Shown here piece after piece: positions 3,801-40,510 of a stretch of DNA of 64,000 nt. Under the pieces are notes generated by a model. That model saw only the letters and a program-made list of their open reading frames with translations, did not search any database and was not told the DNA's origin. The DNA comes from a phage. The first letter of the stretch is position 1. Each line of letters starts with the position of its first letter. The stretch is taken from sequence record PZ583738.1; one strand, written 5' to 3'. A program made the position numbers and the translations under genes.

Positions 3801-5078
3801 ATTTATTTCAGTCAGAACTTTAGGAAGTTTCACACCAAGCAGTACAGACATATCTGAACGTCCTGCCATCAAATCCATATTTGTTGCATCAATAATACGA
3901 GCTTGTTTATCATCAGCAGTCACTGTATAAGGGTTAGCTGCTAACGCATAACGAACCATTAATGCAATAGACGGCTGCAAACTTTCTGGGTCAACGACAA
4001 CTTTGAACGAACCAACATGTTCAGGGTCTTCCAGGTCAAGACCTTCGGTATAAGGTGCATAAAACAGTGAACCCACCATCTCTTTCCCACCGAAATCTTC
4101 TTTAACACCAACAGTCACATAATCAAATGGAGTGTTCGTATCACAATAAAGCGGTAGACCATTATCCAAGAAACCATACGCATTATCGGAGAGATATTTC
4201 TCATCTTGTGGACGATGCTTCAACCAACCGGAACCAGCCAAAACTGCAGCTACACGCGTAGAAGCAACAACGTATGTTGCGGTGTAAGAAGTTGCCCGCT
4301 GAATATGGGAGACCATCTCACACATGATTTCGTACAACTTGCGTGAAGCTTCCGGAGAGTTAGTATAAGACAGGTCAATCAGGCCATCATCACAGAGCCC
4401 AGCAACTTTATAACGCTTGGAAACTGTTACCAGGGATTGCAGGATATCTTTGTTAATTTCATCAGCCATTTCGGTAGCTAACAGGTCTTCCAGGAAGTTT
4501 GGAGCGTCAAAACCGTTTGCTTCCAGGTCCTGGGCCAGTTCCACTGTAACAGTGCTTTTCAGCTTACGAGATTTAACCGGAGCATTCCATTTGTTAACCA
4601 AAAATTTAGCTTCGGCAATTTCGACTTCCTGTGGTCCTTCAAAACGTTCGGTGATTGCAGCTTCGGACATAATACGGATGGTCAATTTAACCATCGCTTC
4701 TTGAAGCTGGTCATACTCATCGCCCGTTGCTCCAGCAAATGGAGTTGCTACCAGCGCTTTATAAACTACATTTTCAAACTGGAACAAATCGTCTTTAGCA
4801 TAAACTGCGCCAGCAACAAAAACCGGAATGGTCGCACGGTCTTTTGCTGATACTGCACCAGAATAGGTTGCACCAGTCTGGAAAGATAATTCATCTTGCT
4901 GAGTCAGGTATTTAAGACCGTATAATGCCGCCAGTGGCTGGGATGTGCGCTGTTGTGCTACTAAATCGGTGTAAATCAGTTTAGTCGTAGCTCTGGTTAA
5001 AGCTACTAGATTCGGTCGACCAATCGAAGAACTTGTGGTCGTGGTCGACTCTTTTAAGAGTTCGTTAATTTTAGCCAT
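3798..5078 (-). CDS. 24: head vertex protein gp24
   Basis: 426 aa, gp23-like fold signature (FYAPYTEGLD..., MVRYALAANPYT), directly downstream of gene 23 as in T4. Confidence 0.9.
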   Translation of the reverse strand: MAKINELLKESTTTTSSSIGRPNLVALTRATTKLIYTDLVAQQRTSQPLAALYGLKYLTQQDELSFQTGATYSGAVSAKDRATIPVFVAGAVYAKDDLFQFENVVYKALVATPFAGATGDEYDQLQEAMVKLTIRIMSEAAITERFEGPQEVEIAEAKFLVNKWNAPVKSRKLKSTVTVELAQDLEANGFDAPNFLEDLLATEMADEINKDILQSLVTVSKRYKVAGLCDDGLIDLSYTNSPEASRKLYEIMCEMVSHIQRATSYTATYVVASTRVAAVLAGSGWLKHRPQDEKYLSDNAYGFLDNGLPLYCDTNTPFDYVTVGVKEDFGGKEMVGSLFYAPYTEGLDLEDPEHVGSFKVVVDPESLQPSIALMVRYALAANPYTVTADDKQARIIDATNMDLMAGRSDMSVLLGVKLPKVLTEIN

Positions 5079-34151: not shown

Positions 34152-35844
34152 TAGAACTCATTGTTGACATTGTTTCGGACCAATTGCCAGCCACGGTCAT
34201 ATCAACGTTTCCATTAACGGACCATTTGACATTACCATTTACCGTATAATCATGGTTACCTTCGACAAGAGTTTTTGCGTCACCTTTAACAGTTATTTCA
34301 GCATTACCTTCGACCAGAATACTTACATTACCTTTGACGATAATTGTACCGTCACCTTCGATAGTTTTGGTTTCATTCCCACGAATATGAATGCTTTCGC
34401 TTCCATCGGTCTGGCGACGAACATTAGCCATATTATAATAGGTTTCATCACCGCCAACGTTGACTTTATTATTTCCGCCCACGTAAGTGCTAGAATCACC
34501 CTGGGTCATATAATAACCGTCAGCTACTGTCTTCGAAGTCTTACGACCATCTGGTGCAACTTCCTCGTAGGAACCGGTCGGGTGAATCAGTCGATAACGT
34601 TCTTGTCCAGGGGTGTTATCGAATTCCTGAATATGACCGCCTTCAGTTTGCATTGTCTGCACGTAAGGATATTCGCCCTTGTAACTTGATTCTGGCTCTT
34701 TAAACAGAATCCTTGTATCTTCTGGGGTCCACGGGTCAGCTGGGTCAGAATTTGCAGGGGCTGCAAAGGTTTGAATCATCCTATATGAACGCCCTTTAAA
34801 TGACCTTTCTTTAGGAGCCATAATACCGTATGATTCCATATTACCGGTAAGGATAATCATTGATACCCTTGATGCACGCCCTTTAGTTTGGTTAAACCAT
34901 ACTGAATTACGAGCTTCCTCAAATGCCTTTTTATAATCACCTACTAACATTGCGCTAAGCATTCCACGGAATTTAGCCAATCCGCCTAATCCCATTTGGA
35001 AAGCCATGTTTTCAAGAGCCATTTGTCTCGAACGGTTTTCTTTATTGTAAACTGGACCCACGACACTATGCCGGCCTATATCGTTTTGTACTTTTTTAAG
35101 GTCTTCTTGGAATAATTTAGAGGCCTCGTCCATTGATATTGCGCCAGGGTTACCTTTAACTTCACGGCCTATTTGATTAGATAATATTTTGTTTATCTGA
35201 TTCATATCTCTAATAGGTTGTGGTGCAATTAAGTGTCCTATACCTATAGTAGGATAACCTTCGGTGTCCCAATATACTTTCAAACGAAGACCTTCATCAC
35301 GGTGAAGCATATTTTCAATTGTGAAATTAGGATTATCATCTGGCTTAACTTGACTCAAATCAAGGCCATCGGGGTTAATACCAAGGTCAAGGTTTGCATC
35401 CTGAATTACGTTCGAAGTTGCATCGTAACCGACCTCACCGCCTCGGTTGAGCGCAGCAGCATCATTACCTACATAAAGTGGATATTGTCCTGTGGGGTCA
35501 GAGAAGCCTTCGTTGGGATTTGCTTTTTGTCTTGAGGCTGAACCATACGTACCAATAACAAGCCCGTTGAGTTTCCACTTGTCTAAAAAGTGACCATATA
35601 CCTGAGTCCCTGGCACCATACCGGTCATTGCAGTTTGAATACCAGAAACTGATGCAGATGATGTTGGCATCAGTACAGACATCCATGGCAGGTCTTCAGT
35701 TCTGATACCTTTTACAGGCCCTTGTGATTTCTCATATGGATGCATACCCCATACACGGACACGGACTCGGCCTTGTTGAAGTGGGTCCATTCGGTCTTCG
35801 ACAACACCGACGAACCAACTTACATTATCTGACATATTAATCAT
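34102..35844 (-). CDS. 5: baseplate hub / cell-puncturing device with lysozyme domain gp5
   Basis: 580 aa; OB-fold N-terminus, central T4-lysozyme-like domain (KVYWDTEGYPTIGIGHL), C-terminal beta-helix repeats (VxGNxxxxV). Confidence 0.92.
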   Translation of the reverse strand: MINMSDNVSWFVGVVEDRMDPLQQGRVRVRVWGMHPYEKSQGPVKGIRTEDLPWMSVLMPTSSASVSGIQTAMTGMVPGTQVYGHFLDKWKLNGLVIGTYGSASRQKANPNEGFSDPTGQYPLYVGNDAAALNRGGEVGYDATSNVIQDANLDLGINPDGLDLSQVKPDDNPNFTIENMLHRDEGLRLKVYWDTEGYPTIGIGHLIAPQPIRDMNQINKILSNQIGREVKGNPGAISMDEASKLFQEDLKKVQNDIGRHSVVGPVYNKENRSRQMALENMAFQMGLGGLAKFRGMLSAMLVGDYKKAFEEARNSVWFNQTKGRASRVSMIILTGNMESYGIMAPKERSFKGRSYRMIQTFAAPANSDPADPWTPEDTRILFKEPESSYKGEYPYVQTMQTEGGHIQEFDNTPGQERYRLIHPTGSYEEVAPDGRKTSKTVADGYYMTQGDSSTYVGGNNKVNVGGDETYYNMANVRRQTDGSESIHIRGNETKTIEGDGTIIVKGNVSILVEGNAEITVKGDAKTLVEGNHDYTVNGNVKWSVNGNVDMTVAGNWSETMSTMSSIASGQYTIDGSRIDIG

Positions 35845-36443
35845 AATGACTTCTCCATCTCACGGATTAATGCCGAAATAAATGATTCGATATCATTAGG
35901 GTCGATTATCTTTATTTCTCGTTTATATTCATTTTTACGAATAGCATCTTCATAGATATCTACTGCAGCTAATGGACCTTCATATTGTGGGTACAATTTA
36001 TTCTTATCACCTTTATCATACCAGGTGTACGGATTATCAGGATAAGAAACAAGATTCCAGAATTTTTCACCATCTTCATTTACATGATAAAGAACCTGAT
36101 TACCACCTATATTCGAATAGCGTTGAATTGATGCCTGATACGATGATTCTTGTGAACATATCCAACCATAATACGGGTCATAGATATCATTAAGCATAAG
36201 GAGAACCCAATAGAGTTGAGTATTACCATAGAGCTGATATGCAAGTTCTTCAGGTCTTGGAGCTCCAGCGATGTAATATGTTTTCGGTGTATAATTAACC
36301 GCAACCTTATCAAAATAGGCACGATAGTTTCTGAAGATGTCAGTCATCGGGATGCTTAAGACGTCTTCTTTCGTTAATGATGCCGAGTTTTTTCTGATTG
36401 TTTTAGCATCATAATCAATTGGGTTAAAAAATGAAAAAAGCAT
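35841..36443 (-). CDS. 53: baseplate wedge protein gp53
   Basis: Start set at internal ATG (MLFSFFNPIDYDAK...) matching recalled T4 gp53 N-terminus; track ORF begins at an upstream non-ATG codon. Confidence 0.8.
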   Translation of the reverse strand: MLFSFFNPIDYDAKTIRKNSASLTKEDVLSIPMTDIFRNYRAYFDKVAVNYTPKTYYIAGAPRPEELAYQLYGNTQLYWVLLMLNDIYDPYYGWICSQESSYQASIQRYSNIGGNQVLYHVNEDGEKFWNLVSYPDNPYTWYDKGDKNKLYPQYEGPLAAVDIYEDAIRKNEYKREIKIIDPNDIESFISALIREMEKSL

Positions 36444-36455
36444 AAAGCCTCCATT

Positions 36456-36463
36456 TATAAATA
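36456..36463 (+). promoter_or_regulatory. late promoter TATAAATA upstream of gene 4 (divergent 53/4 region)
   Basis: Exact motif about 30 nt upstream of gene 4 ATG. Confidence 0.5.
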
Positions 36464-36491
36464 AGTATATCAATATTTATTAGGAGGCTAT

Positions 36492-36944
36492 ATGGCATAC
36501 TCCGGGAAGTGGCAGCCAAAAAACGTTGCCAAGTACAAAGGAGACTGGAAGAAAATCACATACAGGTCAAATTGGGAAAAATTTGTATTTAATTGGTTAG
36601 ATAATCATCCAGATGTGATACAATGGGGCTCTGAGACCGTAATTATTCCATATTTCAGTAATGCGGATGGTAAAAAACGCAGATATTACATGGATATGTG
36701 GGTGAAATTCTCAAATGGACAACAGTTTTTCTTTGAGGTCAAACCCAAAAAGGAAACAAGGCCGCCAGCAAAACCAGTCAATACGACCGCTGCAAGTAAG
36801 AAGAGGTTTATGAACGAAATGTACACTTGGGCCGTTAACAAGGATAAGTGGAAAGCAGCGCAGGCCGTAGCCGATAAAATGGGCATCCAGTTTAGATTGA
36901 TTACTGAAGATGCGCTTAGAAAAATGGGATATAAGGGTTTATAA
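36492..36944 (+). CDS. 4: head completion protein gp4
   Basis: 150 aa, same as T4 gp4, divergent from gene 53. Confidence 0.85.
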   Translation: MAYSGKWQPKNVAKYKGDWKKITYRSNWEKFVFNWLDNHPDVIQWGSETVIIPYFSNADGKKRRYYMDMWVKFSNGQQFFFEVKPKKETRPPAKPVNTTAASKKRFMNEMYTWAVNKDKWKAAQAVADKMGIQFRLITEDALRKMGYKGL

Positions 36945-37672
36945 TGTACGATTGTTCAGATTTTAACATCACAAATGGCGAGATAGTGGGACAAGGCGAT
37001 TTTAATAAATCAAAAACTTTGATATTTGTAAAGTGCTTTATATGTGAAGAAACATGCAAATACAAAGCAACTGTTTTAAAGCATAAGTTAAAAACAAAAA
37101 GTTGGTGTTCTAATTGTAATTTAAAACGTTCTTATGGTGAAAGCAAATTAATATCTGAATTAGATGCAATCACAAGAATAAATTCCGTGAATCCATTGTA
37201 TAGTTTTGATAAATGGGATACCACATATTCAACTTTTACAAAATCAAAAGCCTATATAAAGTGTTCTACATGTTCAACCAGTTGGATTACAAATCTAAAC
37301 AACTTTACAACAAAAAACAAAGGATGTCCAAACTGTTGTCACAAAGGATTTAACGCAAAGAAACCTGCTATTGTTTATGTTAATAAAATAGAATATCCGG
37401 GCGGAACTGCTTTAAAGTATGGTATAACTTCCAATCATGATTTTAGATTGTGGCAGCAAAATCATTTTTCCAAATGCATTAGTTCCAAATTATATTATCG
37501 AGAATTTGAACTGGGTGCACAAGCCAAAATGTTAGAATCCGCAATATCTGTATTATATATAAAAGACAGAGGTTATTTGAATAAAGATATTATGGTCGAT
37601 GGCTATACAGAAACCTTACCATACTATTTAAAAAATGATTTGATTAATTTTATAGAAGGATGGAAAGGATGA
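36944..37672 (+). CDS. Cys-rich homing-endonuclease-like protein inserted between genes 4 and 2
   Basis: 242 aa; four CxxC pairs (zinc-ribbon-like) plus GIY-YIG-like [23 protein letters not shown]...R...H in the C-terminal half; not present at this junction in T4. Confidence 0.45.
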
Positions 37673-38496
37673 GTATTTTTACATTTATCAATGAATCTGC
37701 AGATAAACCAGGTCCGAAACCCAGTAAATCAGAACAACAATGGGTTGAAATAGGGGTTGAATTTTATACAGCAAAAGAAAAGGGAATGACCTCGAAGAAG
37801 TTTGCTGAAGAGAAAGGAATCAACTATTCGACCTTTACCAAAAGCATGTCAAGATATCATTCGAGAATTCAGACTGCTTATAAAGTATCCAAGCTCAAAA
37901 AGAAACCTGCCGGTAAACTTACGAAGGCTGAACGTCAGCTGATAATGGTGAATAGCTTTAGAAAGAGCATAAGAGATAAGATTGCTAACGAAGGCGCTGC
38001 AAGCAACACCAAATCTGCCAGATGGTTCGCTGAGACAATTAAGAAATCGGTTCGGGGCCACGTAACGGCTAAACCTCAACCGGGTAAGATTTATGCTTAT
38101 ATCTATGATGCAAAGCATAAGGATACTCTTCCGTACTGGGACAAATATCCGTTAATCATTTATCTTGGGCTAGGTAAGCACAATTTGATGTATGGTTTGA
38201 ACTTGCACTATATTCCACCGAAGGCACGTCAAGAGTTCCTTGAGGAACTTCTTAAGCAATATGCCAATACTCCTACGATTACGAACAAGACTCATCTGAA
38301 GATTGATTGGTCAAAAGTGAAGGGATTTAAAGGGGCTGACCAGATGATTAAAGCATATATACCTGGCAATATAAAAGGTACTATCACTGAAATCAAGCCC
38401 AGCGACTGGGCAAATGTGGTATTACTCCCCCTTCAGCAGTTTTTTTCAAAAGGCAAAAGATTTTCTTCACAGAAAGTATGGAGAAATTCACTTTGA
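37660..38496 (+). CDS. 2: DNA end protector protein gp2
   Basis: 278 aa in gene 2 position between genes 4 and 3. Confidence 0.8.
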
Positions 38497-39152
38497 ATTA
38501 TCAGTTTATATATTCATCGTTAATTGAAAGGGCCCGTAACAGGGTCCTGATTTCATATAAAGAATCTCATCACATCATTCCGAAATGTATGGGTGGTTCA
38601 AATGCTCCGGATAACTTAGTCGATTTGACTCCCGAGGAACATTATGTAGCCCATCAACTATTGGTTAAAATATATCCTACAAATCCAGGTTTAAGTTTTG
38701 CTGCCACATCTATGAGTCAGTCAAGCAAGTATTTGAAACGCAATAATAAATTATTTGGCTGGTTAAGACGCAGACACGCTGACAATATTTCTAAAAGCCA
38801 AACCGGTAAAGTTTACTTTAATAATGGTGTCAAATCGATAAAACTATTTCCATGGGAAGATGTTCCGGATGGGTTTGTCAAAGGAAGACATTACAGCCCA
38901 ACCAAGGGTACAAAACATTCTCGCAATAATGGACATTTTAAAAATAAAGAGATTCAGGACGAATTGAGAAAGCGCCGGTGGGAAAAAGATAGGCAAGAAA
39001 TGTGTAAAAACTTCGGAGTTGATACCATCGAGCAAGCTCGAGAGTTGGTCCTAGCATATAAAAAGGAATTGCATCCTCGATACTGGGTAAAGCCAATGTT
39101 GGAACGTTATCCGTTTATGACTAAGCTAAGACTTAACACATTAATAAAATAA
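38478..39152 (+). CDS. HNH homing endonuclease (Mob-like) inserted between genes 2 and 3
   Basis: 224 aa; canonical HNH region [30 protein letters not shown]. Confidence 0.8.
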
Positions 39153-39237
39153 TCTATTATCGGTCAGTGTTATTGGTAAGGACAAAAGGTCTAGAACCAT
39201 TATAACACTGATTGTTTTAAAGCAAACAAGGTGCACT

Positions 39238-39837
39238 ATGTCAGGTTTATATAATCAAACTAACACGACTAACTTTATATTAGAGGTAAGCGATTCAAAC
39301 CTCACACAGACCTTTAAACTCAACGTTCAAGACGTTACCCTCCCTGGAGTTCACATTCCAGTGACGGATGTCCCTGGGGGAACACAAGGTATAAATCGCT
39401 CCAGTCTTCCTGGTAGTACAATAGAATTCGACCCGCTGATTGTTAACTTTCTGTGTGACAAAGACCTAAGAGCATGGCTTGATATCTATAAATGGATGCT
39501 CTCGCTCAACAACTACATCACACACGAATCAAAAGCATGGCATCCAAAGGGTCGTCCCGAAGCGGTCACGCTTCATATCTTAGATAACAACAAGGACAAA
39601 ATTGTCATGTCAATCCATTACTATGGAGCATGGCCGTCCGACCTGTCAGAGATTCAGTATTCATATAAAGAAGATTCTGACCCGGCTATCATTGCAACAG
39701 CAACTTTTAACTTTAAGTCTTTTGCTGTAGAAATTGATGGTATAATAATAGAAGGTAGACCACAGATTGATAGTAATGCAGCAATGCAACAGGAAATCAG
39801 GTCTAAGTCAATGCATCCATCTATGAGAAACGTATGA
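39238..39837 (+). CDS. 3: tail completion / sheath terminator protein gp3
   Basis: 199 aa in gene 3 position between genes 2 and 1. Confidence 0.65.
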   Translation: MSGLYNQTNTTNFILEVSDSNLTQTFKLNVQDVTLPGVHIPVTDVPGGTQGINRSSLPGSTIEFDPLIVNFLCDKDLRAWLDIYKWMLSLNNYITHESKAWHPKGRPEAVTLHILDNNKDKIVMSIHYYGAWPSDLSEIQYSYKEDSDPAIIATATFNFKSFAVEIDGIIIEGRPQIDSNAAMQQEIRSKSMHPSMRNV

Positions 39838-40510
39838 AATTAATTGCGATTGTGGGTAAAAAACGCAGTGGTAAAGATACGACTGCTGATTATGTTATTA
39901 GTCAAAACGGAACAAAGTGGCAGCTTGCTGGTCCGATTAAAGAAGCGCTTTATAAAGCGTGGATTCGTCAAGACCTGCCACACAATTTGACCCTGGAAAA
40001 TTTTGATGGACAAGGTTACGACCGTGAAAAAACCTTAATAATGAACAACACCGAAGCTTATATTCTTCTGGTTGATGCTCTTGAATGGTTGAAACAACAA
40101 TACAATCTTGACCTTCCGAATCCAGATATGGTTCGTAAAATCATTGAATTTCACACACTAAATAATGTTGAGCCCTGGACAGTTAGACGTTTCATGCAGA
40201 CCCTTGGAACTGATATTGTTTGTACAGAGTTCGACAGCATGTTTTGGATTAAAACTTTTGCATGCGACTATCTTGACAACCTCTATTCTGGATATAAATA
40301 TTACGTTGTCCCAGATGTTCGCCAAAAGAACGAACTTGATTCGCTTCGGGCGATGGGTGCTACAATAATCTTTGTAGAACGCGATGAAGCAAATCATTCT
40401 ACTGATACACACATTACGGAAGCTGGACTTCCACCACTAGCTAGTGACATTGTTATTAAAAACGATGGCACACTCGAAGAACTTTTTGATAAAATTAATA
40501 AGGTAATATA

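Follow-up and report, generated by a model that had tools for sequence, protein, structure and literature searches.

A probable pair of free-standing homing endonuclease genes around gene 2 of a Gaprivervirus-type phage

Gene 2, which encodes the DNA end protector, is flanked on both sides by an additional open reading frame in the 64,000-nt stretch of sequence record PZ583738.1 analyzed here (the window). The phage is T4-like, of the Gaprivervirus type. The first-pass annotation took both frames for endonuclease-like insertions and suggested that the upstream one, a Cys-rich ORF of 242 aa (ORF242), is either a novel architecture or a non-catalytic derivative. What are these two genes, and how did they come to surround gene 2? 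We consider it probable (roughly 85%) that the two frames are independent free-standing homing endonuclease genes (HEGs), one on each side of gene 2 within the late operon 4-2-3. This reading draws on the domains, fold and conserved residues of the encoded proteins, on the insertion junctions and patchy distribution of the genes, on their fidelity to a site across genera, and on a linked allele and a recent-transfer tract.

The late operon and the insertion between genes 4 and 2

Apart from the mismatch-free tract described below, which has no strand, all features discussed are located on the + strand. Gene 4 (36492..36944) encodes the head completion protein with a TnsA-like N-terminal nuclease fold (Pfam PF08722, 1.9e-22; PHROG 218), and gene 2 (37669..38496) is identified by PHROG 429 (1.8e-78). 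For the latter, we use the start common to its relatives, i.e., ATG 37669 (MSIFTF...), while the ORF list places the start at 37660. Gene 2 shows 94.8% nucleotide identity to its counterpart in Shigella phage SP18, in which no insert separates genes 4, 2 and 3. Relative to SP18, both ORF242 (36944..37672) and the downstream HNH ORF (38478-39152) are therefore insertions, and the first-pass annotation was right in placing one on either side of gene 2.

An exact motif search found the T4 late-promoter consensus TATAAATA at 36456..36463, 29 nt 5' of gene 4. Since this is the sole occurrence of the motif on the + strand of 35801-39400, it likely drives a 4-ORF242-2-HNH-3 transcript, given that its role as a late promoter is carried over by analogy from established T4 biology. 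Our scan for sigma-70 promoters and terminators found none above chance in 36300-39400, and the RNA folds around the two start codons are not significant (z of +1.28 and -0.70), for which reason we do not propose that the ribosome-binding sites are sequestered. A long stem-loop at 39161..39214 (MFE -23.9 kcal/mol, z = -2.78) belongs to the native gene 2 - gene 3 spacer; its sequence is identical in the HNH-less SP18, i.e., it is outside both insertions. Rfam detects neither a group I intron nor any further RNA family in 35800-39900, and both endonuclease genes are thus free-standing rather than intron-borne. Neither has a paralog elsewhere in the window.

The upstream insertion is fitted tightly between its neighbors. 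The ATG of ORF242 overlaps the gene-4 stop (TAATG), and its own stop overlaps the gene-2 start (ATGA). Gene 4 of SP18 ends in ...TTAGGATGGAAAGGATGAGT; in the window, those bases close ORF242 instead, and similarity to SP18 picks up again at 37657. That is, what was once the 3' end of gene 4, GGATGGAAAGGATGA (GWKG*, 37658..37672), has been displaced, now provides the last four codons and the stop of ORF242 and preserves the ATGA stop/start overlap with gene 2. More distant homologs of ORF242 have different C-terminal ends. Gene 4 itself ends in ...MGYKGL* in place of the ancestral ...LGWKG*.

Domain order, fold and family of ORF242

With its ATG start and 242 aa, ORF242 appears to be a free-standing T5orf172-type HEG of the GIY-YIG clan. 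Its protein contains exactly four CxxC pairs (C31/C34, C55/C58, C107/C110 and C128/C131), where about 0.6 would be expected by chance from its 12 cysteines, and a GIY-YIG-like stretch in the C-terminal half (residues 141-163), both as had been noted on first inspection. The first zinc finger (about residues 10-60, C31xxC34...C55xxC58; 36971..37123) is treble-clef/CapR-like and a predicted DNA-binding module. Its AlphaFold model shows strands at 12-17, 26-31 and 37-41 and a helix at 42-48, the family alignment shows almost no variation at C55 and C58, and the 69%-identical ortholog P0002 has two CapR stretches. The second finger (about residues 84-134, C107xxC110...C128xxC131; 37193..37345) resembles a DUF4379/CapR treble-clef module, with C128 and C131 invariant within the family. 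Here, the Pfam model DUF4379 matches residues 100-133 (E=4.6e-4, 20.8 bits, which is below the cut-off of 24.5), and the PDB sequence search matched the DUF4379 zinc-ribbon protein 6sga_Fd.

The C-terminal domain (about residues 140-240; 37361..37663) carries the motifs IVY145, K158-Y-G160-I-T, R168, E198 and G220-Y-T-E223-T. Its model shows the three-stranded sheet packed on helices that defines the GIY-YIG fold, to which we confidently assign it on the basis of the prediction. Residues Y145, K158, G160, R168, E198 and E223 are invariant in 33 aligned homologs. The metal-binding Glu is most likely E223, with E198 invariant as well. At the position of the second Tyr in the canonical YIG motif, the family is variable (Y/F/I/V), such that the chemistry of ORF242 may differ in detail from that of I-TevI.

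These observations bear on whether ORF242 is a non-catalytic derivative, e.g., a domesticated zinc-finger DNA-binding regulator comparable to the satellite protein CapR that retains a dead GIY-YIG-like domain. CapR-type fingers are known to have been recruited for transcriptional repression (PMC8096241), the window protein stays below threshold for every Pfam nuclease model, and a regulator could act from a position in a late structural operon. Nevertheless, we regard this alternative as unlikely: Y145, R168, E198 and E223, i.e., residues of the catalytic type, are invariant in all 33 homologs, and the GIY-YIG fold is assigned with confidence; the gene as a whole has a dN/dS of 0.15, i.e., it is under purifying selection; and the scattered occurrence among relatives, the tract free of mismatches and the gene-4 allele linked to the site, all described below, are marks of a mobile nuclease and not of a fixed regulator.

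With regard to family membership, the window protein matches PHROG 681 'endonuclease', while there is no match to the Pfam nuclease models (for T5orf172 and MUG113 not even at E<=10), to NCBIfam or to any defence-system model of PADLOC. A word-indexed protein search yielded 2 matches only, and the family becomes visible only by exhaustive HMMER search, in which 1,097 representative proteins match at E<=1e-3. The ortholog P0002 exceeds the cut-offs for CapR (30.6 bits vs. 24.2) and DUF4379 (27.2 vs. 24.5) and narrowly misses that of T5orf172 (19.5 vs. 20), and P0005, which is likewise encoded between genes 4 and 2, shows weak T5orf172 and MUG113 matches. Among 33 full-length homologs, Pfam matches at E<=0.01 comprise DUF4379 (28/33), CapR (23/33), MUG113 (18/33), T5orf172 (11/33) and GIY-YIG (5/33). 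The structural comparison agrees: 137 predicted viral structures match the ORF242 model at E<=0.001, with names that include CapR homology, T5 Orf172, GIY-YIG and homing endonuclease. When the profile of the family alignment is compared with PDB sequences, only zinc-ribbon matches and no nuclease are obtained. Taken together, these comparisons probably place ORF242 in the T5orf172 subfamily of the GIY-YIG clan (Pfam PF10544 / PF13455); the window protein itself has diverged too far to pass the Pfam thresholds. An alignment to a non-nuclease zinc-finger family would have spoken against an endonuclease; what the N-terminal half aligns to is DUF4379/CapR, which is the very DNA-binding module of T5orf172-type nucleases.

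This assignment also settles the question of a novel architecture. The order in ORF242 is indeed opposite to that of I-TevI and the Seg proteins of T4, where the nuclease is N-terminal and NUMOD/HTH DNA-binding modules are C-terminal, and no sequence similarity to this canonical type is detectable (when the family profile was compared by hhalign with the canonical Seg-like GIY-YIG protein that P479 encodes, nothing but a CxxC motif aligned). Furthermore, T4 itself has no T5orf172 gene (PMC10448857). However, N-terminal zinc fingers followed by a C-terminal GIY-YIG-clan nuclease are the usual layout of phage T5orf172 homing endonucleases (PMC10448857, PMC8096241): 200 of 229 such HEGs have CapR, DUF723 or DUF4397 zinc-finger domains in addition to a T5orf172 domain (PMC10448857), and the CapR cysteines are required for DNA binding (PMC8096241). 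Many of the 1,097 matching proteins have repeated fingers and then the same C-terminal domain, and homologs are present in T5, RB49, JSE, Phi1, RB16 and jumbo phages. A new architecture with reversed domain order is thus refuted by the HMMER matches, the Pfam domains of the homologs, the viral structure matches and the published survey (PMC10448857), and we give it next to no credence. ORF242 looked odd only because the T5orf172 subfamily normally puts the zinc fingers first and the nuclease last.

The closest described relatives in kind are the T5orf172-type HEGs with CapR-like zinc fingers of Vibrio phage ICP1 and T5-like phages (Barth, Dunham & Seed 2023, PMC10448857; Netter et al. 2021, PMC8096241). 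ORF242 shares with them the repeated N-terminal CxxC zinc-finger modules, the C-terminal T5orf172/MUG113 domain, the free-standing location adjoining essential structural genes and the position at an allele-exchange boundary, and its orthologs show the same CapR and T5orf172 Pfam matches. It differs in that it belongs to a separate clade tied to the 4/2 junction of T4-like phages and borrows its last four codons from gene 4. Cleavage activity within the subfamily is known for ICP1 Odn (Gp88) only, an experimentally shown T5orf172 nuclease that needs its conserved Glu (E180A is inactive; PMC8263062). Odn and ORF242 have in common a C-terminal nuclease of the same domain family, an N-terminal specificity domain and the conserved catalytic Arg and Glu (PMC8263062), while Odn binds DNA through a RepA_N domain and is a weapon against satellites, in contrast to the zinc fingers and the homing-element behavior of ORF242.

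Distribution, linked gene-4 allele and transfer tract

The absence of inserts is the common state among relatives. Within the 53-4-2-3 block, 16 of 28 distinct close relatives have no insert at all, while 3/28 carry ORF242 and 7/28 the HNH gene. All four closest ORF242 homolog clusters (69, 45, 39 and 35% identity) are located between genes 4 and 2 of other T4-like genomes, and homologs of the HNH gene are found at the 2|3 junction of Tequatrovirus CAM-21 and of Acinetobacter phage Maestro (Hadassahvirus), with 60% and 49% identity, respectively. That is, each gene shows presence or absence at one site with junctions exact to the base and intact flanking genes, and each has its own lineage at its own site in diverged genomes, as is typical for HEGs. 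Elsewhere, the identical 4|2 slot is filled by Seg-like GIY-YIG endonuclease genes unrelated to ORF242. The 53-4-2-3 block is hence a three-site hot spot with four different endonuclease genes, i.e., T5orf172-type, Seg-like GIY-YIG and two Mob-like HNH.

Occupancy of the 4|2 site is also reflected in the adjacent gene. Gene 4 of the window shows 72-73% nucleotide identity to relatives that are empty at this position (UPEC07, 212, VR25, VR7 and SP18), compared to 90-99.6% for relatives with an endonuclease gene there; the neighboring genes range from 88 to 99% identity across the same comparisons. On protein level, at least 98% identity to gene 4 is observed in only 6 phages among 2,577 records, all of which have a gene at 4|2, and the next best value is 79.9%. 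The gene-4 allele of the window thus appears strictly linked to occupancy of 4|2 by an endonuclease gene.

The mismatch map relative to Shigella phage fPSFA reveals a mismatch-free tract of 894 bp (36837..37730), which takes in the last 107 bp of gene 4, runs through all of ORF242 and extends 62 bp into gene 2. Within ORF242, 0/725 positions differ, while gp53, gp4, gp2 and the HNH gene show 2.5-3.5% mismatches (background about 3%). For RZ, the respective mismatch-free tract covers 36792-37699. ORF242 is therefore 100% identical between phages whose flanks differ by 1.3-3.5%, and the tract, together with the linked gene-4 allele, has the form expected from co-conversion. We read the 894-bp tract as the probable trace of a recent transfer in which short stretches on either side were co-converted. 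Compared to MHG19, the synonymous difference of ORF242 (pS 0.66) is lower than that of gp4 (0.99) and gp2 (0.83), which could partly result from AT-biased codon usage.

Alternatively, T4-like phages might have inherited both ORFs vertically as ancestral accessory genes, which most relatives then lost by deletion and which are not mobile now. Long vertical descent would fit homologs down to 35% (ORF242) and 49% (HNH) identity in the same slots of different genera, and the HNH gene is as diverged as its own flanks. On the other hand, the deletions would have had to restore the gene-4 tail, the ATGA overlap and the gene-2 stop exactly, and many times over. Neither the identity of ORF242 between phages with diverged flanks nor the jump of gene-4 allele identity from 99% to 73% in step with site occupancy is in line with such a history, and the same holds for the unrelated Seg-like genes in the identical slot and for the outlying GC content of ORF242 (29.8%, within the lowest 0.2% of 729-nt windows). 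We therefore grant this alternative only a slim chance.

The HNH gene and a model for both insertions

The downstream ORF had been described as a 224-aa protein with a textbook HNH box. The HNH string is present verbatim at residues 31-59, but the length is more likely 219 aa: we favor a start at TTG 38493 (38493..39152; Shine-Dalgarno GGAG at 38480-38483) over the alternative reading from ATG 38478 (38478-39152, 224 aa), since VR7 has the HNH gene without this ATG while the HNH-less RZ, P8 and 212 have it. The same comparison rules out that ATG 38478 was brought in by the insert. As derived from the window, P479 and UPEC07 versus SP18, RZ, P8 and 212, the insertion that carries the HNH gene comprises 659 bp (38491..39149) and sits between the last shared gene-2 codon and the original gene-2 stop TAA (39150-39152), which now ends the HNH ORF. 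Gene 2 became one residue longer thereby (...RNSL* vs. ...RNS*).

The HNH motif (H31-H59 in 224-aa numbering) aligns with those of McrA (6ghc) and pyocin AP41. The motif is clear, although the generic Pfam HNH profile remains sub-threshold (16.3 bits, cut-off 21.4), and PHROG 655 'homing endonuclease' matches at 2.4e-56. Using tblastn, we obtained matches in 1,054 phage records, some of which adjoin dda-type helicase and nrdA genes, and in 5 places of T4 (best 47.7% identity over residues 6-107). The gene thus seems to be of the Mob type. It shares with the T4 Mob family (MobA-E), of which MobE has reportedly been shown active by experiment and to make strand-specific nicks, the N-terminal HNH motif and the free-standing location between essential genes, and its copies in VR7, VR25, CAM-21 and Maestro are annotated as MobB- or MobC-like. 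Unlike the T4 Mob genes, it occupies the gene 2|gene 3 locus, which is empty in T4. Its C-terminal half has no recognised domain, in contrast to its UPEC07 paralog at 53|4 (44% identity), which shows NUMOD3 and a C-terminal zinc motif.

HNH proteins that assist packaging are known in other phages. With this precedent and a location among head-completion and DNA-end genes (4, 2), the HNH protein could be a packaging or head-completion accessory nuclease, similar to terminase-associated HNH proteins, and not selfish. We deem this very improbable, given that the gene is absent from 21/28 close relatives and from T4 at the 2|3 locus and is thus dispensable, that its relatives are Mob genes (PHROG 655, the 5 places in T4 and homologs next to dda- and nrdA-type genes), and that the insertion is precise and ORF-sized. 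A homing endonuclease remains our preferred reading for the HNH gene. Its dN/dS is 0.12-0.19 (0.12 vs. VR7). Relative to fPSFA, it shows 3.4% mismatches, i.e., no excess identity over its flanks and therefore no sign of very recent movement; likewise, the mismatch map shows no co-conversion or hitch-hiking signal around it.

How both genes would have spread can be outlined as follows, where we infer that DNA is cut at all, at which sites this happens and that the linked allele is immune. The two N-terminal CapR/DUF4379 treble-clef fingers of ORF242 are predicted to read the DNA site, and the GIY-YIG-fold domain is predicted to cut nearby via Tyr145, Arg168 and the metal-binding Glu. In a mixed infection, ORF242 would cleave the HEG-less allele in or beside the 3' part of gene 4, and recombinational repair from the HEG-carrying genome would copy in ORF242 along with the linked, presumably cleavage-resistant gene-4 allele. 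The Mob-type HNH gene would nick or cut HNH-less gene 2/3 junctions and spread likewise. Each HEG lies directly 5' of the stop codon that belonged to the essential gene before it and now uses this original stop signal itself, such that the stop/start overlaps of the operon are preserved.

A more far-reaching version, for which we see about even odds, is that ORF242 represents a distinct T5orf172 clade specialised on the 4/2 junction that is homing now, since identical copies are found in phages whose flanks differ by 1-3%, and that carries with it a private gene-4 allele immune to cleavage. ORF242 and the Mob-type gene would form a small 'HEG island' around gene 2, and both would have evolved insertion before a stop codon with re-use of the stop and coupling signal.

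ORF242 and the HNH gene are new members of already known kinds, and the current understanding of homing endonucleases is unchanged by them. The findings matter chiefly for annotation and for the study of phage evolution: in fPSFA, RZ, DK-13 and MHG19, the name T5orf172-type homing endonuclease can replace 'hypothetical protein' for the product encoded between genes 4 and 2. So far, the case for homing by the T5orf172 subfamily comes mainly from genome comparisons. The 4|2 locus offers a clean natural setting for its study in a tractable E. coli phage, since relatives with ORF242 (e.g., RZ and DK-13) and HEG-less ones (e.g., SP18 and VR20) are available, the linked gene-4 allele is sharply defined and the recent-transfer tract is visible.

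Insertions on both sides of gene 2

The region is 90-99% identical on the nucleotide level to Gaprivervirus-type T4-like coliphages, with Shigella phage fPSFA and Escherichia phages vB_EcoM_RZ and DK-13 as nearest relatives, followed by P479, VR25 and VR7. The listed gene order is gp5 and gp53 (both -), gene 4 (head completion protein, 36492-36944, +), the endonuclease ORF of 242 aa (ORF242, 36944-37672, +), gene 2 (37669-38496, +), the HNH ORF (end 39152, +), gene 3 (39238-39837, +) and gene 1 (+). The first-pass annotation had placed ORF242 and a 224-aa HNH reading frame here and read them as endonuclease-like insertions flanking gene 2 (DNA end protector). Positions and lengths agree with our analysis, and both ORFs are insertions, since the alignment to Shigella phage SP18, where 4-2-3 is uninterrupted as in T4, breaks at both places, i.e., homology is lost at 36856, returns at 37657 and is lost again at 38490-39149. 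The gene 4 product hits PF08722 (1.9e-22), the N-terminal domain of TnsA-like endonucleases, such that the essential neighbour of ORF242 itself has a restriction-endonuclease-like fold.

Gene 4 of SP18 ends with ...TTA GGA TGG AAA GGA TGA and overlaps gene 2, whose ATG forms part of ATGA. These terminal bases serve in the window as the end of ORF242 (37658-37672; ...E G W K G *), and gene 4 has a new tail (...M G Y K G L *), the stop codon of which is shared in part with the start of ORF242 (TAATG). Since the GWKG terminus is missing in more distant family members, the homing endonuclease gene (HEG) has captured the last codons of gene 4 along with the stop/start overlap. The ORF242 ortholog of Yersinia phage MHG19 is flanked by an 18-bp direct repeat, AGGATGGAAAGGATAATG (L002:3784-3801 and 4512-4529), as a result of which gene 4 and endonuclease both finish with GWKG* and a TAATG stop/start overlap.

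The HNH insert (38491-39149, 659 bp) lies at the end of gene 2, after the final codon held in common and before the original stop. That is, gene 2 is lengthened by ...L-TGA and its old TAA now ends the HNH ORF. The HNH gene likely starts at TTG 38493, because VR7 lacks the upstream ATG while HNH-less phages have it, the paralog in UPEC07 starts with MNY..., and GGAG is found 9 nt upstream. A possible hairpin (38461-38486), pairing the Shine-Dalgarno GGAGAAA with upstream UUUCUUC, recalls reports that some T4 endonuclease genes are controlled at translation; its stability is no better than that of shuffled sequence (z -0.70).

Neither promoter nor terminator signals above chance were found at the locus, and Rfam reports no intron or other family there. 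Given that the late-promoter motif TATAAATA is present in a single copy upstream of gene 4, both inserted genes are probably expressed from the late 4-2-3 transcript via stop/start coupling. The spacer between gene 2 and gene 3 forms a long stem-loop (39161-39214, MFE -23.9 kcal/mol, z -2.78) followed by UUGUUUU. It is identical in the HNH-less SP18 and thus native to the operon and outside the insert; it may serve as a processing, stability or attenuation element before gene 3.

Families and domains

ORF242 belongs to PHROGs family 681 ('endonuclease', 2.5e-29). With ORF242 alone, Pfam yields just a match to the DUF4379 treble-clef zinc finger below threshold. For the MHG19 ortholog (69% identical), CapR (30.6 bits) and DUF4379 (27.2 bits) both exceed their Pfam cut-offs, and T5orf172 scores 19.5 (cut-off 20). 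An exhaustive HMMER search with ORF242 returned 1,097 representative proteins (E<=1e-3), many of which show multiple zinc-finger stretches followed by its type of C-terminal domain. Among 33 full-length aligned homologs, DUF4379 is matched by 28, CapR by 23, MUG113 by 18, T5orf172 by 11 and canonical GIY-YIG by 5. The invariant columns (C128, C131, Y145, K158, G160, R168, G191, E198, G220, E223) include the Tyr, Arg and Glu expected in an active GIY-YIG-clan site.

Four CxxC pairs (C31/34, C55/58, C107/110, C128/131; chance expectation about 0.6 given the 12 cysteines) precede a GIY-YIG-like stretch (residues 141-163), both as first described. This order had been tentatively interpreted as a novel architecture, which we reject, or a non-catalytic derivative, which is not supported: reversed order is the rule in the T5orf172 subfamily, because published T5orf172 HEGs combine zinc-finger domains with a C-terminal T5orf172 domain. 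The CapR domain, whose four cysteines are required for DNA binding, is homologous to the N-terminal parts of presumed homing endonucleases in phages, which have T5orf172 at the C-terminus (Netter et al., PMC8096241). Zinc-finger domains of the CapR, DUF723 or DUF4397 type, often in repeats, occur in 200/229 T5orf172 HEGs; such HEGs are located beside essential genes, where genetic exchange has its boundaries, and are absent from T4 itself (Barth, Dunham and Seed, PMC10448857). Nuclease activity that requires a conserved Glu was demonstrated for a T5orf172 protein (Barth et al., PMC8263062). The architecture of ORF242 is therefore already known.

ORF242-type homologs are present in T4-like RB49, JSE, Phi1 and RB16, in jumbo phages and in T5. 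T5.141 (L018:28-780) is 35.7% identical to ORF242 residues 86-227 (second zinc finger and nuclease domain) and directly precedes pb2, which encodes a tail protein, and thus lies in another essential-gene neighbourhood.

The HNH ORF belongs to PHROG 655 ('homing endonuclease', 2.4e-56). Its HNH string is exactly as first reported (residues 31-59 of the 224-aa reading) and aligns to McrA and pyocin HNH motifs. By tblastn, 1,054 phage records contain relatives, and T4 itself has them in five places; some matches adjoin dda-type helicase and nrdA genes, which are sites of T4-type Mob genes.

Signs of function and mobility

Only fPSFA, RZ and DK-13 carry ORF242 among 28 distinct close relatives. 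The four nearest homolog clusters (69, 45, 39 and 35% identity) all occupy the interval between gene 4 and gene 2 in other T4-like genomes or contigs. The gene has a GC content of 29.8% (window mean 40.3%, SD 3.0; lowest 0.2% among windows of this size) and a dN/dS of 0.15 against the MHG19 ortholog.

There is no mismatch to fPSFA over 36837-37730 (894 bp), a tract that runs from the end of gene 4 through all of ORF242 into gene 2 and is read as a sign of recent transfer; divergence in the surrounding genes is 2.5-3.5%. For RZ, the mismatch-free tract spans 36792-37699. Gene 4 of the window shows just 72-73% identity to relatives with an empty 4|2 junction but 90-99.6% to those with an endonuclease gene there; gp53, gp2 and gp3 range within 88-99% in the same comparison. 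The respective gene-4 protein allele (>=98%) is found in six phages only, each with a gene at 4|2; among 2,577 records, the runner-up reaches 79.9%. With regard to MHG19, the synonymous difference (pS) is lower for ORF242 (0.66) than for the flanking gp4 (0.99) and gp2 (0.83). Distribution, site fidelity, clean tract, linked allele and lower divergence are the footprints that homing with co-conversion would be expected to leave, and suggest that the target lies on the side of gene 4.

DNA of the HNH gene is found in P479, VR25, VR7, TH55, UPEC07, TH22 and fPSFA and is missing from the remaining close relatives. Homologs fill the same gene 2|gene 3 slot in Tequatrovirus CAM-21 (60%) and Acinetobacter phage Maestro (49% identity), and dN/dS is 0.12 against VR7 and 0.19 against CAM-21. 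Since its divergence from fPSFA (3.4%) equals that of the flanks, there is, unlike for ORF242, no sign of very recent transfer.

The 53-4-2-3 hot spot

Three insertion sites make the 53-4-2-3 block a hot spot. The 53|4 junction holds a Mob-like HNH gene with NUMOD3 in UPEC07 and 212, probably also in TH55 and TH22 given identical coverage patterns, and, in Klebsiella phages of the genus Jiaodavirus, a gene annotated as homing endonuclease; 4|2 holds a T5orf172-type or Seg-like gene and 2|3 a Mob-type HNH gene. The insert-free state is the more common: 16/28 relatives have none of these genes, and the window's pair is shared with fPSFA only. Several Klebsiella T4-like phages, KEN25_1 (Jiaodavirus, L022:843-1951) and similar records, have their homing endonuclease gene between 53 and 4. 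Beside it, gene 4 of KEN25_1 is annotated as two overlapping pieces (1501-1614, 1595-1951), which could reflect a frameshift or a split gene.

In P479, P8 and PSD2001, the 4|2 slot is taken by a Seg-like gene without relation to ORF242; its product (215 aa; L003:1445-2092 in P479 and L007:1244-1891 in P8) combines an N-terminal GIY-YIG with NUMOD3. It occupies the exact ORF242 slot, with TAATGTA as common left junction and a return to shared sequence at GGAAAGGATGAGT, and the gene-4 allele linked to it is nearly that of the window (98% protein identity), which looks like cassette replacement. The P479 gene shares a C-terminal C(P/E)HCG...(F/Y)KRWHG(D/E)NCK motif with the 53|4 gene of UPEC07 (L004:1014-1721). 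This suggests that one putative zinc-binding DNA-recognition module was shuffled between two nuclease classes (GIY-YIG and HNH).

What is observed at this locus comprises the domain make-up, the fold and conserved residues, the junctions, the distribution, the linked allele and the transfer tract; we infer the following course of a mixed infection. ORF242 would bind DNA through its two zinc fingers and use its GIY-YIG-type domain to cut HEG-less DNA in the region of gene 4, and repair off the HEG-carrying genome would bring in ORF242 along with its linked allele of gene 4. A like course would apply to the Mob-type enzyme at the gene 2/3 junction. On sequence grounds, we regard both genes as ordinary free-standing homing endonuclease genes of known kinds. 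The added value is modest: a site-specific T5orf172 clade at 4|2 with evidence of current mobility, and a habit common to both elements, namely the re-use of the host gene's stop signal.
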